Positions 33,926 to 39,846 of a DNA stretch of 64,000 nt are shown here, in pieces (the stretch's first letter is position 1; every line of letters starts with the position of its first letter). The translations under genes and the position numbers were made by a program. The DNA is taken from the NCBI GenBank assembly GCA_963841365.1, contig CAWJDG010000032.1, positions 25,339-89,338 of the forward strand, written 5' to 3'. The DNA is from an uncultured Acidobacteriaceae bacterium. Its GTDB lineage: Bacteria > Acidobacteriota > Terriglobia > Terriglobales > Acidobacteriaceae. The notes under the pieces were generated by a model. It did no database searches. It had not been told where the DNA came from and saw nothing but the letters and a program-made list of their open reading frames with translations.

Positions 33926-33945
33926 ACTAGCGTGAAGGCTTCTCT

Positions 33946-36288
33946 GTGCGCATCCTCACCCGCTACATTCTCGGCGAGATCCTCTCCCTCACATTCATTG
34001 GTTGCGCCCTCTTTACTTTCATTCTCTTCATGCCCCTGCTTCCTCACATCCTTGAGATTGTGGTGCGCAGCAGTTCTACGTGGTCCGACGTGGGGCAGGT
34101 CTTCCTCTTCACCCTTCCCAATCTCTTCAAGGTCACCATTCCCATGGCGGTGCTGTGGGGCATTTTGCTCGGGCTTGAGCCGCCTGGCCTCCGACAGCGA
34201 GATCATCGCCATGCGCGCTTCCGGCCTGGGCATCGGCTATTTTGTTCGCGTCGCCTCCATCGTCGCCGTCAGTGGCACGCTGCTCGGGCTGGGCAACTCA
34301 CTCTATCTCATTCCGCGCGCCAACCAGGCCATCATCCAGATGGAGCAGGCTCTTGAAACCTCGCAGGCCTCCTATGAGATTCAGCCGCGCGTTTTCTATG
34401 AGGATTTTCGCAACTACGTTCTCTATGTGCAGGACGTGCGCGCCGGCGCGGGCGCGGCCAACTGGGGCCAGGTTTTCATGGCCGATGTCAGCGATCCCGG
34501 CAATCCAAAGGTCACCACCGCCGAATCGGCCACCGTGGTCAACGACAGCTCGCAGGAGCTGATCATGCGCCTGCGCAACGGTCTGCGCGACGAAACCGTC
34601 GCCGACCAGCCGGGGCAGTCCAACATCTCCACCTTCACTACCACTGACATGCCGCTGCTTCTGGGCCAGCAGAGCGACGTCCACCTGGGCCGAATGGACC
34701 AGGCCCTCTTCGCCATGCCCGTCAGCATGCTGCTGCAGCGGATTCACGGTCCCGACAGCAAGCGATTTCTCATTGAGCTGCACAATCGCTTTGCTTATCC
34801 CGCCGCCTGCCTGGTGCTGATGCTGGTAGGCGTTCCTCTCGGTGTGGCCTCGCGCCGCGGAGGCAAAAGCTCGGGATTCGTCTTCACCATCCTGCTGGTC
34901 TTCGTTTACTACTTCCTCTCGTCCACCGGGGTTGCTCTTGGACATCAAAGCCGGCTCCCGGCATTTTTCGCGGTGTGGTCGGCGAATCTGCTCTTCGCCG
35001 CTGCCGGCATCTTTCTGTTGTGGCAAATGGCCACCGGCGGCCGCATCCTGGCCGCCATCACAGCATGGATCTCCCGATTGCCCAAGCTCAAGGCGCCGCC
35101 CAAGCCCAATGGTTTTCCCCTCGCCGGTCTTCTCGATCGCTTTCAGCCGCGCGTACCGCGCAACAAGCCTCGCAGCATCTTTCCGCGCATCCTCGACGAG
35201 TACATCGTGCGCGAGTTTGCCACTATGTTTTTCCTCGTTCTTGCCGGCTTTGTCCTGCTCATGATCGTCTTCACGTTCTTCGATCTGATTGGCGACATTC
35301 TTCGCAACCGCATCGCTCTCGGCATCGTCGGCGAGTATCTGTTGAACCTTACCCCGAGCATGATCTACCAGATCGCGCCCCTGGCCGTCCTCATTGCGGC
35401 CCTGGTCATCTTCAGCGCGCTCAATCGCAACAGCGAAATCGTCGCCATGAAGGCAACCGGCATCAGCCTTTACCGGCTGGTCATTCCCATCGTCGCCATC
35501 GCCGTTTGCCTGTCCGTGAGCCTGTTTGTCTTTGCGCAGTACTATCTGCCTCAGGCCAACCGCCGGCAAGAGGGGCTGCGCAACATCATCAAGGGCCGGC
35601 CACCGCAAACCTACCTCAACCCCAATGAGAAATGGATTTTCGGCCAAAAGCCGCTTCCCGGCGAGCCAGGCAGCATCTTCTACTACGAGTTCTTCGATCC
35701 AGACAGCAATGAGTTTGCTAATATTTCCGTCTTCGAGTTCGATCCCTCCACCTTCCAACTCACGCGGCGCATCTTTGCCAAGCGCGCGGTCTGGAATCCG
35801 GATTCCCTGGATGGCTCTTCGAAAGCGGCTGGGTGCGTGACATCCAGGGCGCGAACGTGAAGGCGTACCGCACGTTCCTTAAAACATCATTTTCTGAAAT
35901 TCACGCGGGGCCGGATTACTTCAAGAAAGAGGATCTGCAATCGCAGGAGATGAACTTCGGCCAGCTCGACCACTATATCCGCGACCTGCGCCAGAGCGGA
36001 TTTGACACCAAGCGCCTTAGCGTCGCGCTCTGGGACAAGCTCTCCTATCCGCTGATCGCGGTCGTCATGGCGGTGCTTGCCATTCCCTTCGCGCTCTCCA
36101 TGGGGCGCCGCGGCTCCATCACCGGCGTCGCCGTAGCCATCGCCGTGGCGCTCGCCTACTGGGTCGTGAATCTCATGTTTGAAGCCATGGGCAACGTGAA
36201 TTACCTGCCCGCATCCATGGCGGCCTGGTCTGCCGACGTCCTCTTCGGCCTTGTCGGCGGCTATCTGCTGCTGCGCACGCCGACGTAA
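33946..36288 (+). CDS. lptF: Fused LptF/LptG LPS export permease, split by frameshifts (~34176, ~35807)
   Basis: MRILTRYI...GILLGL then SRLASDSEIIAMRASG; second unit RILDEYI...RNSEIVAMKATG; C-terminal part in a third frame. Confidence 0.85.
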
Positions 36289-36409: not shown

Positions 36410-38176
36410 ATGCTCGGCGACCTCGGCCCCCTCTACCCCTACATGCGCCGCTACCGCTGGGGATATGTCCGCGGCACGCTGGCGTGCGTAGCCACAAACA
36501 TTGTTGCCGTCCAGTTTCCCCGCGTACTCGGCATGGCCGTCGACAGGATCGAGAAGGGGACCACTCGCGAACTGATCCTGATCTTTGCCCTGATCCTGAT
36601 CGGCATCAGCCTGGTCAAGGGCATCTTCCTCTACGCGCAGCGCTGGGTTCTCATCGGCATCTCGCGCGAAATCGAATTCGATCTGCGCAACGACCTCTTC
36701 CTCAAGCTCGAGACTCAGGACTCGGGCTTCTATCAGCGCTATCGCACCGGCGACATTATGGCCCGCATGACCAACGACCTGAACGCCGTGCGCATGCTTC
36801 TCGGGCCGGCGCTCATGTACAGCGCCAATACAATCTTCCTCTCTGTCTTTGCGCTGTTCTTTATGCTGCGGATCAGCCCTTATCTGACCATGGTGGCGCT
36901 GGCGCCCATGCCGCTGGCCAGCATCGTCATTCAGTATCTCGGGCGCAAGATTCACGACCGCTTCGAGCGCATCCAGGCCAGCTTTTCCGATATCTCCGCG
37001 CAAGCCCAGGAAAACTACTCCGGCGTCCGCCTCATTCGCGCCTTTGCCCGCGAGGAGTCTCAGATCGGACTCTTCGAGCGCCTCAACCGGCAGTACATCG
37101 GCCGCGCCCTGCGCCTTGTGCAGTTGATGGGCATGTTGTGGCCTACGCTCGAGTTCATCCTCGGCATCTCCATGATCATCACCCTCTTCGCCGGCGGCCA
37201 CCAGGTCCTCGCGCACCGCATCACGGTCGGCCAATTCGTAGCCTTCAGTACCTACATGATTCTGCTTATCTGGCCCATCATCGCGGTGGGCTGGGTCATC
37301 AACATCTTTCAGCGCGGCACGGCCTCAGTCAAGCGCATTGATGAACTGCTTAAATCCGAGCCGGCGATTGACGACAGGCACTCCACGCCCTCAGCCTTTG
37401 GGCCGGGTTTCAGGCTCAACGGAGAGATTGAATTCCGCAATCTCACGTTCAGCTACGACGACACGCCCGGGCAAACACCGGTCTTGCGCGACGTCTCGCT
37501 GCACATTCCTGCCGGATCGAGCCTGGCCATCGTCGGCCCCACCGGCTGCGGCAAAACCACGCTCGTCAACTTGATCCCGCGCCTGTTTGATGCGCCCGAA
37601 GACATGCTTTTCATTGACGGCCGCCCCGTGCGCGAATATCCGCTGGAGGTTTTGCGGCGCAACATCGGCATGGTGCCCCAGGAAACTTTCCTTTTCAGCG
37701 AGACCATCCGCGAAAACCTGGCCTTTGGCGCGCCGAAAGCAAGCGCCAAAGAGCTTCTGGAAGCGGCGCAGGCGGCTCACATTCGCGTGGAATTCGAAGA
37801 GTTTCCGCAAGGCTTTGAAACCATGGTCGGCGAGCGCGGTGTCACACTCTCCGGCGGGCAAAAGCAGCGCGCCGCCATCGCTCGCGCGTTGTTGCGGCGG
37901 CCCGCCATCCTTATCCTCGACGACGCGCTCGCCAGCGTTGACACCTACACGGAAGAGCGCATCCTCGGCGGCTTGCGCGCTTACACAGCCGATACCACGA
38001 CCATCCTCATCTCGCACCGCGTGTCTACGGTGCGCAATGCCGACCGCATCGCCGTGCTCGACAAAGGCCGCATCGTCGAAGTGGGACGCCACGACGAACT
38101 GCTCGCCCTCGACGGCTACTACGCCAGCCTCTACCAGAAGCAGCAGCTCGAAGAAGAGCTGACGGTGGCGGGATAA
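36410..38176 (+). CDS. ABC exporter, fused TMD-NBD (MdlA/MsbA-like)
   Basis: GDIMARMTND, GPTGCGKT, LSGGQKQR, ILDD. Confidence 0.92.
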   Translation: MLGDLGPLYPYMRRYRWGYVRGTLACVATNIVAVQFPRVLGMAVDRIEKGTTRELILIFALILIGISLVKGIFLYAQRWVLIGISREIEFDLRNDLFLKLETQDSGFYQRYRTGDIMARMTNDLNAVRMLLGPALMYSANTIFLSVFALFFMLRISPYLTMVALAPMPLASIVIQYLGRKIHDRFERIQASFSDISAQAQENYSGVRLIRAFAREESQIGLFERLNRQYIGRALRLVQLMGMLWPTLEFILGISMIITLFAGGHQVLAHRITVGQFVAFSTYMILLIWPIIAVGWVINIFQRGTASVKRIDELLKSEPAIDDRHSTPSAFGPGFRLNGEIEFRNLTFSYDDTPGQTPVLRDVSLHIPAGSSLAIVGPTGCGKTTLVNLIPRLFDAPEDMLFIDGRPVREYPLEVLRRNIGMVPQETFLFSETIRENLAFGAPKASAKELLEAAQAAHIRVEFEEFPQGFETMVGERGVTLSGGQKQRAAIARALLRRPAILILDDALASVDTYTEERILGGLRAYTADTTTILISHRVSTVRNADRIAVLDKGRIVEVGRHDELLALDGYYASLYQKQQLEEELTVAG

Positions 38177-38333
38177 CGAGCCGGTTGCTTCATCCTGGTT
38201 TTGCTAGGGCGCGACGCTTCTGAAAAAATTCTCCCATCGCGTTCAAGACCTCGCAAAAAAACATTGCATCTTCACGCATTTCGATTTATGCACCAACCTT
38301 GGTGAAATCCACAAATTTACTTGTTTTTTGCAC

Positions 38334-38363
38334 TTGCTTCCACAGATTGAACGGACGTACTGT
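38334..38363 (+). promoter_or_regulatory. Sigma70-like promoter for the candidate ncRNA
   Basis: TTGCTT 38334-39, 18 nt, TACTGT 38358-63, with an AT-rich upstream tract. Confidence 0.5.
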
Positions 38364-38369
38364 CTCATT

Positions 38370-39237
38370 CAACTGATGACCTTGTAGGGCATTAGGAGTT
38401 GGTTGCCGGAATGGTTGGCGGAACGAAAAGCCGATGAGAATCGGAAAATGGACGCCAGCCCGGCCAGAGGGTGAAACCTGAGGCGAAAGCCGCAGAGGGA
38501 TCGCTGGTCGCGCCAGACATTGCAAAAGCCGACGCAAGTCGGAAGTTGTTAAGCTGGCAGATCCGGAGGGTGCGCGAACCGGTGGATACGGAATACTCAT
38601 CGGCGGCTCAGCTGCCGATGCAAGGTTCGGTTGAAGCAAGGGGTGCATCAAAGGCCCAGCCGGAGGTAGAAACATCCGACGCAAGTCGGGTGAGTCGAAA
38701 CCGGTAAAGCTGGAGGAGGAACAGCCGATGCGAGTCGGAGGTTCGCCGCCGGTGTGGCAGACGGGCGACAGAAGGCGCAAGCTGGAAGTCGCAGCAGCAG
38801 TCAGCGCAAGCTGACAGGTTGCAACAGCAGCCGGCGAAAGTCGGAGGCTGGACACGAGCCGAGCTGAAGGATCAACGCCAGGTGCGAGTCGAAAGTTAGT
38901 CGCCGGCCTTGCCGGAGGAAGGATCGTTCGACGCAAGTCGGATGGATCGCCGCCGGTCGAACGGAAGCGCGCAACAGCCGATGCAAATCGGAGGTTCGCC
39001 ACTGGTCGAGCCGAACGATGGAACGCCGATCCGAGCCGGGAAAGTTGGCCGCCGGTCGAGCCGGATTGCAGAGCAGTCGGCGCAAGTCGAAGGTTCTCAA
39101 GCCGTCGCAGCCAGAGGATGTGACGCCAGCGAAAGCTGGAGGTCAGCCGCTGGGGTAGCCGGAGGACGCAACAACCGGCTGTACTATGAGTTATCAAGAT
39201 TGAAACGCCAGAGGCTTCGGTCTCTGGCGTTTTCAAT
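38370..39237 (+). ncRNA. Candidate large modular structured ncRNA (~49-nt GNRA-hairpin units)
   Basis: 12 clear GNRA-capped hairpins, ~49-nt period, compensatory stem changes, 5'/3' end pairing, flanking promoter and terminator. Confidence 0.75.
39199..39237 (+). terminator. Strong intrinsic terminator
   Basis: AAACGCCAGAGGC-TTCG-GTCTCTGGCGTTT with a T-tract; C(UUCG)G loop reads correctly on the + strand. Confidence 0.85.
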
Positions 39238-39342
39238 TTACGGCCATTTCTCCCGAACACCTGGCCGCTGCATCCCCGCCGTGCTCCTCGTCACCGCGCC
39301 CTCCGCCACACTCCGCATTACACTGGCCGTGGAGAGTCACTC

Positions 39343-39846
39343 ATGTCATCCGGGTTCATCAGAAAGAGCGCGACCGCCATCGCCGCCCTCGCATTCGTGT
39401 GCCTTTTTGAATTACCTCCGCGCGCCATCGCCCAATGGGCGTCGCCGCAGCCGGCCAGCGCAACGACCATTCCGGCCGCCCAGCTCATCCAGCCCGAAGC
39501 GCTCAACCGCCTGCTTCACTCCCTCGGCGCTGACAAGCCCCTCATCCTGCAGGTCGGCTCGCGCATGATGTTCGCCCAAGCCCACATTCCCGGCTCGGAG
39601 TACGCGGGCCCCGGCTCGCAATCGGAAGGACTGCAGCAGTTGCGCGCCCGCGTCGCCTCGCTCCCCCGGTCGAGCTTCATCGTCCTCTACTGTGGCTGTT
39701 GTCCGTGGAATCGCTGCCCTAACGTCGGCCCTGCCTACAATCTGCTGCACGAAATGGGTTTCGCCCGTGTCAAAGTTTTGTACCTCGCCGACAACTTCGG
39801 CACCGATTGGGCCGGCAAAGGCTACCCGATTGAGAGCGTTCACTAG
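39343..39846 (+). CDS. Secreted rhodanese-like domain protein
   Basis: Signal peptide, AHIPGS, IVLYCGCCPWNRCPNV, DWAGKGYP. Confidence 0.8.
   Translation: MSSGFIRKSATAIAALAFVCLFELPPRAIAQWASPQPASATTIPAAQLIQPEALNRLLHSLGADKPLILQVGSRMMFAQAHIPGSEYAGPGSQSEGLQQLRARVASLPRSSFIVLYCGCCPWNRCPNVGPAYNLLHEMGFARVKVLYLADNFGTDWAGKGYPIESVH

Follow-up and report, generated by a model that had tools for sequence, protein, structure and literature searches.

What occupies a 1166-nt intergenic gap in which no convincing protein-coding gene can be found? We address this question for a locus of an uncultured Acidobacteriaceae bacterium (assembly GCA_963841365.1, contig CAWJDG010000032.1), using a 64,000-nt stretch of DNA that is referred to as the window and whose coordinates are given throughout. 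The gap lies between the genes for an ABC exporter (36410-38176) and a rhodanese (39343-39846). A first-pass annotation, made from the sequence alone, had proposed that it holds one large + strand non-coding RNA (ncRNA) with its own promoter and terminator, in which paired ends enclose many GNRA-capped hairpins. Our analysis bears out this proposal. A stand-alone gene at window 38370-39237 (+) encodes a large structured ncRNA, and a real, expressed, and structured RNA gene at this position is, in our judgment, almost certain.

Non-coding status and strand of the locus

The only long open reading frame (ORF) in the gap is located on the minus strand (38286-39260; 324 amino acids), and a Pfam search with its translation returned no match. 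Among 37 homologs, this frame is not preserved: in most of them, the longest open stretch spans 100-200 codons, and the frame differs from species to species. No codon periodicity was found (column variability of 0.285, 0.323, and 0.326 for the three positions). The 216 small indels relative to near homologs all have lengths of 1, 2, or 4 nt, such that none is a multiple of three. Because the ORF is unconserved, aperiodic, and lacks such indels, the open frame is explained as a by-product of the purine-rich, U-poor composition of the + strand (G 36%, A 25%, C 25%, and U 14%), and we rejected the ORF as a gene. The first-pass annotation had likewise seen no credible coding sequence in the gap and had asked about conserved coding signal in an overlapping ORF; none emerged.

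Two observations place the RNA on the + strand, as had been argued previously from the GNRA loops. First, the minimum free energy is -391.5 kcal/mol for the + strand (z = -10.1), compared with -304.5 kcal/mol for the minus strand (z = -2.6). Second, 93 homologs contain 1013 GNRA-capped hairpins on the + strand and only 23 on the minus strand. A DNA-level search of the same genome found the RNA locus to be single-copy.

A 49-nt lattice of hairpin modules

The gap is filled by a degenerate repeat of ~49 nt (spacings of 49, 98, and 147 nt), with a GNRA-capped hairpin in each unit. The consensus of 583 modules reads GCCGG, a bulged A, GG and a variable stem, AAC, AG, CCGRY, and the GNRA loop, followed on the return side by RYCGG, AG, GUU, the other strand of the variable stem, CC, and CCGG. 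In structural terms, the base of a module is CYRG/CYRG, with a bulged A next to it; the variable stem leads to an AG/AG internal loop, which is topped by a 5-bp CCGRY/RYCGG stem and the GNRA loop. The apical motif is the most conserved part among these modules. Among the loops counted, GCAA is the most frequent (700), followed by GAAA (324), GCGA (273), and others in smaller numbers.

Covariation among homologs, which the first-pass annotation had named as a check, is present both in the modules and in the closing stem described below. For 98 diverse modules, the covariation score of the structure is 0.435, compared with 0.205 ± 0.009 for shuffled sequences (none of 500 reached the observed value) and 0.05-0.14 for slid controls. 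In the four-pair base helix, the arms within a module form 92 G-C and 54 A-U pairs with seven mismatches (odds ratio 414), whereas arms tested against that of the next module show no covariation (odds ratio 0.96). Because the base helix covaries within but not between modules, each 49-nt unit is best described as a closed hairpin of ~45 nt plus a linker of 3-6 nt. CCGG-N5-CCGG mini-hairpins between modules were rejected by the same comparison. At the level of the whole RNA, RNAalifold found double compensatory changes in 40 of 281 pairs when eight sequences were aligned, and many more with 41 sequences.

The 98 modules served to build a covariance model (R1), which identified nine modules in the window at 28-41 bits, while everything else scored at most 12 bits. 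When the entire genome was searched, R1 gave 10 hits in the RNA locus and one weak hit elsewhere, indicating that the modules are confined to one locus. Together with the single-copy DNA result, this excludes dispersed palindromes of the REP/BIME type. A CRISPR or other repeat-spacer array was also rejected: Tandem Repeats Finder reported no array, the units are only 60-80% alike, and structure rather than sequence is kept.

About 16 lattice slots of 49 nt fit between the paired ends, and most of them are occupied by one self-contained hairpin module each. The lattice of this genome carries 13 GNRA modules from 38436 to 39131, and the special domains fill whole numbers of slots. The modules outside of the 3' domain are as follows.

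38413-38561, + strand: modules 1-3 (38413-461, 38462-510, and 38511-561), R1 scores of 28-35 bits, with compensatory pairs
38658-39009, + strand: a run of modules (38658-708 and 38707-756), three short hairpins, and further modules (38863-909, 38910-959, and 38960-39009), R1 scores of 29-41 bits, with compensatory pairs

In the second run, the short hairpins have their loops at 38777, 38806, and 38836, and the successive loop spacings are 49, 47, 29, 30, 48, 49, and 50 nt. Across 93 species representatives, the loop spacing has a sharp peak at 49 nt with harmonics at 98, 147, and 197 nt, and modules are gained or lost between species as whole units. The earlier picture of a ring of hairpins therefore needs revision: many hairpins do lie within the paired ends, but they are self-contained modules on a 49-nt lattice rather than a free ring.

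Closing stem, central domain, and 3' junction

Apart from the modules, the RNA has paired ends and two unique domains.

38374-38387, + strand: 5' strand of the closing stem (P1a 38374-79, a 3-nt loop 38380-82, and P1b 38383-87), with covariation
38562-38656, + strand: central domain (~95 nt), a long irregular hairpin over two lattice slots, 101 bits with the central-domain covariance model (R2)
39010-39180, + strand: 3' domain, with a variant slot that carries an invariant CCGAUCCGAGCCGG motif and a junction helix (39034-56/39158-80) around the last two modules
39184-39196, + strand: 3' strand of the closing stem (P1b 39184-88, a loop 39189-90, and P1a 39191-96), with covariation

The predicted pairing of the 5' end with the 3' end was confirmed in 79 distinct homologs. 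P1a is canonical in 86% of cases (slid controls 12-59%) and P1b in 83% (slid controls 16-46%), and each helix has one clearly covarying pair (A-U 41, G-C 18, and G-U 9 in P1a; U-A 40, U-G 17, and C-G 10 in P1b). In other clades, the GAUG/CAUC pairing is replaced by GGUG/CACC or AGUG/CACU, and in a sister genus by GCAGU/ACUGC. When RNAs of 711 to 1135 nt were folded as single sequences, 10 of 14 showed the 5'-3' pairing. A hairpin formed locally at the 5' end (CUGAUG...CAUCGG) was considered in place of the closing stem; it is feasible in near homologs but poor in distant ones, in which the closing stem holds.

A second helix just inside the first (38398-406/39168-75) had also been proposed. 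It can form (91% canonical, 22 mismatches), but is outcompeted by an internal helix (39034-56/39158-80) that is 99% canonical and includes a covarying pair (C-G 26, U-A 14, and U-G 1). The proposed second closing helix is thus probably replaced by an internal three-way junction, inside which lie the last two modules (39059-108 and 39109-157; R1 scores of 33-34 bits).

The central domain combines invariant internal-loop sequences with three helices that show double changes, including double compensatory changes in 38569-75/38643-49 and 38588-607/38611-31. A long-range pairing between 38430-41 and 38593-604 was rejected, as changes in the first hairpin are compensated locally and not in the distant segment.

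Promoter, start site, and terminator

The transcription signals that flank the RNA are listed below.

38302-38313, + strand: upstream promoter box 1 (GTGAAATCCACA), DnaA-box-like, nearly invariant in homolog alignments
38334-38363, + strand: core promoter with a -35-like TTGCTT (38334-39), box 2 TTCCACAGATT (38338-48), and a -10-like TACTGT (38358-63), conserved genus-wide
38370-38372, + strand: predicted transcription start, ~7 nt past the -10 element, from promoter spacing and contigs L265 and L301
39197-39240, + strand: intrinsic terminator, a UUCG-capped stem with a U-tract, -26.9 kcal/mol (z = -8.8), almost invariant

The first-pass annotation had called the promoter sigma70-like. Its position and 18-nt spacer stand, and the promoter block is the best conserved part of the locus, with distant homologs keeping TANNNT at -10; the consensus match, however, is weak (6 of 12 positions), and a sigma-70 consensus scan did not call TTGCTT-18-TACTGT. 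Two environmental contigs, L265 and L301, start at the equivalents of 38371 and 38373, i.e., at the predicted start site. The strong UUCG terminator was correctly recognized, and sequence conservation collapses directly past its T-run.

A TCCACA(R)AUU box occurs twice in direct orientation in the promoter, at a distance of ~36 bp (38302-13 and 38338-48). The upstream copy resembles the DnaA box TTATCCACA, which we take to be the E. coli consensus, and this likeness hints that the RNA may be under DnaA or cell-cycle control. In a collection of species genomes, the two-box pattern matched at least 119 contigs, all of them from metagenome-assembled genomes of Acidobacteriaceae or other Acidobacteriota, or from one isolate. 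In many species, the upstream box reads GATATCCACA, one mismatch from the presumed consensus.

Expression and processing in environmental samples

A scan of metagenome contigs with the invariant pattern of the central domain found at least 120 contigs, most of which are ordinary genomic contigs with the promoter and the terminator. About 18 of these contigs are short and contain the RNA body alone (from 38380-38386 to 39188-39198), without promoter or terminator; past the RNA body, they either stop or run into unrelated sequence. According to Rfam, three of them are joined to fragments of large-subunit ribosomal RNA (rRNA), two bacterial and one eukaryotic: L328 (9-131), L213 (828-1132), and L250 (910-1109). 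Because body-only contigs are fused to rRNA, they are assemblies of RNA rather than DNA, and from such transcript-derived contigs we infer that the RNA is abundant in situ. L213 and L291 have a foreign flanking stretch in common, which in L213 lies within the 23S rRNA match.

The ends of these contigs are clustered. At the 5' side, 10 of 12 ends are at 38380-82; at the 3' side, six of 10 are at 39188-90 and the other four at 39194-98. These clusters mark the two strands of the small internal loop that separates P1a from P1b. No circular junctions were seen in the transcript contigs, the flanks of which were checked by eye. That the ends fall within the closing stem suggests a processing step that removes the terminator, and the transcript-derived contigs suggest that the mature RNA loses the outer closing helix as well. 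The primary transcript starts shortly past the conserved promoter and stops at the intrinsic terminator. In the mechanism that we propose, a cut in the internal loop between P1a and P1b would then release a mature RNA of ~810 nt (~38381-39190) from which the terminator has been removed. Such excision would be comparable to that of rRNA precursors, which are cut from a 5'/3' stem. The likeness includes paired 5' and 3' flanks, apparent mature ends that lie opposite each other inside the stem, and removal of the terminator. In contrast to the RNase III processing of rRNA precursors, the ends observed here come from assembled contigs, and their position is a small internal loop, not an extended perfect duplex.

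Homologs and distribution

The homolog search called for by the first-pass annotation yielded full-length relatives within the genus and arrays in one other genus. Among 400 other Terracidiphilus genomes, a DNA-level search matched at least the promoter and leader in 277 (~70%). About 60 of these 277 matches are full-length at 69-92% identity, and most others cover only the first ~90 nt (promoter and leader). In distant species, + strand arrays of GNRA hairpins at 49-50-nt spacing are found 3' of the conserved promoter. The RNA is 515-1553 nt long in 93 species representatives (median 870 nt), and across the family the extremes are ~420 and ~1550 nt, the number of modules around the conserved core being about 2 at the lowest and about 21 at the highest. 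The short end of this range comprises forms with few modules in genomes that had at first seemed to lack an array (~420 nt in G104, ~610 nt in G013 and G019), all of which keep the promoter, leader, and core. In a diverged member in G005 (locus L183, minus strand), the loops of many modules depart from GNRA (GGAA, GAAG, and others). The retention of the AAGUCGGAG 3' half-site in L183 suggests that what is conserved is this element and not the tetraloop itself.

DNA-level searches are insensitive beyond the genus, and the module model added one genus. When applied across the family and order, R1 found arrays in Terracidiphilus and one other genus (g124) only. The RNA in g124 is ~470 nt long; its promoter boxes and terminator are the same, and its closing stem is compensated. 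The RNA family therefore occurs in Terracidiphilus and at least one sister genus of Acidobacteriaceae. No match to R2 was found outside of Terracidiphilus. The apparent carriers include one isolate, 'Acidobacteria bacterium AB60' (locus L132), which was matched by the promoter pattern.

In another genus of Acidobacteriaceae (g19), six of 10 genomes have single, non-arrayed R1 hits of 28-34 bits (e.g., G435:C3:135285-135335, G576:C1:909700-909748, G734:C1:405816-405865, and G737:C1:410774-410824). L194, the sole g19 locus inspected, has no array. These hits may represent an unrelated hairpin or a relic module.

Comparison with known RNA families

No match was found in the entire window with Rfam 15 at gathering thresholds, and a search of 38100-39400 at E <= 10 returned only noise (E of 2-8, unrelated families). 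The families covered include Acido-1, Acido-Lenti-1, OLE, GOLLD, ROOL, 6S, tmRNA, RNase P, and the group II intron. Acido-1 (RF01686) and Acido-Lenti-1 (RF01687) are acidobacterial ncRNA motifs (PMC2864571), and the first-pass annotation had pointed to them as candidates to be checked; since both are in the library searched and neither scored even at E <= 10, they are excluded, and the statement that the architecture is not a recognized one stands. In the literature on large or tandem-hairpin RNAs of Terracidiphilus and Acidobacteria, we found no description of such an RNA. Periodic intergenic arrays are the subject of a 2026 preprint, but the periods it lists are 60-79, 18, and 5 nt and do not include 49 nt. 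We rate the RNA as a new class of large bacterial ncRNA, to which the nearest ideas are CsrB-type sponges and MAEB tandem hairpins.

Similar to CsrB/RsmZ, the RNA is a stand-alone unit with its own promoter and terminator and many similar hairpins, in species-variable number, that present a short motif multivalently. Unlike in CsrB/RsmZ, the loops are GNRA rather than GGA-containing, and GGA/GGAGG is mostly paired, in stem or internal-loop positions. The RNA is also two to three times larger and has a strict 49-nt lattice, a closing stem, and unique conserved domains. GGAGG is enriched, with 10 occurrences compared with 2.5 ± 1.5 in shuffled sequences. A CsrA sponge of the CsrB/RsmZ type was rejected, as the GGA motifs are not exposed in loops and no CsrA was found in the genomes searched (see below).

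MAEB is a hairpin found in Burkholderia (beta-proteobacteria) in tandems of 2-12 copies. Each genome has many such loci, where MAEB forms part of the 5' UTR of metabolic genes; its authors also weighed a CsrB-like protein-binding role (PMC1950547). The RNA described here shares with MAEB a tandem hairpin unit with symmetric purine-purine stem positions. It differs in having one locus per genome, an independent transcription unit, a closing stem, and unique domains, and in its occurrence in Acidobacteriaceae. MAEB-like cis-regulatory hairpins were rejected based on the single locus, the own promoter and terminator, and the variable downstream genes.

With OLE, GOLLD, ROOL, and raiA, the RNA shares the 0.5-1.5 kb size class, strong covariation, a stand-alone gene, and lineage restriction. 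Those four RNAs are non-repetitive and have fixed multi-domain folds, whereas the RNA described here is a periodic array that varies several-fold in length within one genus.

Possible functions

What does such an RNA do? Tentatively, we favor a multivalent ribonucleoprotein scaffold or sponge, a possibility that leads the field but that we would not put at even chances. The same apical element (AG/AG loop, C/G stem, and GNRA loop) would be displayed by every module and bound by copies of a single RNA-binding protein. The particle would be anchored or regulated through the unique domains, and its valency would be tuned evolutionarily by gain and loss of whole modules. This reading fits best because the apical motif is uniform, the core is conserved, and the module number varies about tenfold. 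The whole-module indels between species and the restriction of the module to a single genomic locus fit as well.

Several observations weigh against it. No protein partner was identified at the locus or among the CsrA and Hfq proteins tested. CsrA (PF02599) was not found in the window's genome, which is 76% complete, nor in five complete RNA-bearing genomes (99-100% complete), while control genomes were positive. Hfq paralogs number three or four both in genomes with an array and in those with few or no detectable modules. They do not track the array, and we rejected them as a partner signal (genomes tested: G020, G025, G171, G219, G027, G013, G023, G104, G009, and G019). Among the loci compared, the neighboring genes are variable and include no RNA-binding protein or consistent partner. 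The loop identity is position-specific (it is fixed at some slots, with GAGA in module 1 of 40 of 41 homologs, and free within GNRA at others), and orthologous modules remain 1:1 among near species; a simple sponge would explain both no better than a defined three-dimensional architecture. Lastly, the evidence for processing comes from the ends of assembled contigs and from chimeric junctions rather than from mapped reads.

All tested Terracidiphilus genomes have one canonical Hfq gene (~100 bits) and two or three divergent ones (25-40 bits).

The position-specific loops lead to a second explanation, unlikely in our view yet worth keeping in mind, in which the RNA is a self-folding or self-associating architectural molecule. 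Its GNRA loops would dock in minor-groove receptors of other modules or of other RNA copies and build a bundle, sheet, or oligomer, in spirit like the assemblies of ROOL, GOLLD, or OLE. Every module has a GNRA loop together with tandem C:G pairs, and the CYRG/CYRG base occurs as CC:GG or CU:AG. Costa and Michel reportedly described CC:GG and CU:AG as the classic helix receptors for GYAA and GYGA loops. Loop identity fixed at several lattice positions, a strict 49-nt period preserved across species and special domains, and a very stable fold (z = -10) also speak for this explanation. However, the ~tenfold variation in module number within a genus is hard to square with a closed and defined assembly, and no loop-receptor covariation was shown: the associations are confounded by orthology, and the base types are invariant where the loops vary. 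In addition, linkers of 3-6 nt would make neighboring modules point the same way, such that docking between them would be awkward. A more specific version, which we consider improbable, is a processed and highly abundant architectural RNA of ~0.8 kb whose 49-nt GNRA lattice zips, inside a single molecule or across several, via tetraloop contacts with CC:GG/CU:AG helices, or templates a periodic protein filament.

It is very improbable that the RNA is a polycistronic precursor, diced by a double-strand-specific nuclease into hairpin RNAs of ~45 nt that act singly. Each module is a hairpin of ~20 bp, a size accepted by RNase III-type enzymes, and the closing stem is apparently cleaved; yet the transcript-derived contigs assemble the whole body of ~800 nt with common ends, and there is no conserved guide-like sequence because the stems evolve by compensatory change.

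A long cis-acting leader or attenuator for the downstream genes deserves still less credence. In 22-25 of 30 near homologs, the genes for rhodanese and AhpC/redoxin do lie downstream on the same strand. However, the RNA ends in a strong terminator past which conservation collapses, the transcript contigs stop before this terminator, and the downstream genes differ among loci, with the rhodanese present at only ~22 of 71 and an MFS transporter or UxuA-like gene found elsewhere.

Lastly, the 324-codon open frame in this genome and the repetitive sequence could be taken for a minus-strand coding gene or a non-functional repeat or satellite, but this is scarcely credible and already refuted as far as sequence analysis goes, given the failed coding tests described above, the single-copy locus, the compensatory changes that hold the modules, and the conserved promoter and terminator.

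Neighboring genes

The genes upstream of the RNA vary among species, and those downstream are rhodanese and AhpC/redoxin in some species and an MFS transporter or UxuA-like gene in others. Further upstream in the window, 33932-36288 contains a 642-aa ORF with two LptF/LptG matches. A 151-aa ORF (35833-36288) overlaps its end, and the match of this second ORF is limited to the C-terminal part of LptF/LptG. Possible explanations are an LptF-LptG fusion that carries a frameshift and a second gene that is split.

Implications

The genomes analyzed here derive from datasets of acidic soil and peat, in which Terracidiphilus and its relatives among the Acidobacteriaceae are common. The RNA is found in most of the species sampled, and there is enough of it in environmental RNA to be assembled and to form chimeras with rRNA. 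As a new class, it joins the short list of large bacterial ncRNAs, among which its periodic, modular, and length-variable design is unusual. This design also suits experiments, since the modules can be counted, deleted, and swapped, and the cultured isolate AB60 appears to carry the RNA.

If processing at the closing stem is true, it would be a rare case of bacterial ncRNA excision from a 5'/3' stem outside of rRNA and tRNA. If a protein partner exists, the RNA would define a new multivalent ribonucleoprotein; if none does, it would be a natural repetitive, self-organizing RNA. Should the lattice reading be true, the number of modules would set the length of an extended assembly, made of RNA alone or of RNA and protein; no periodic RNA lattice of tunable length is known from bacteria.

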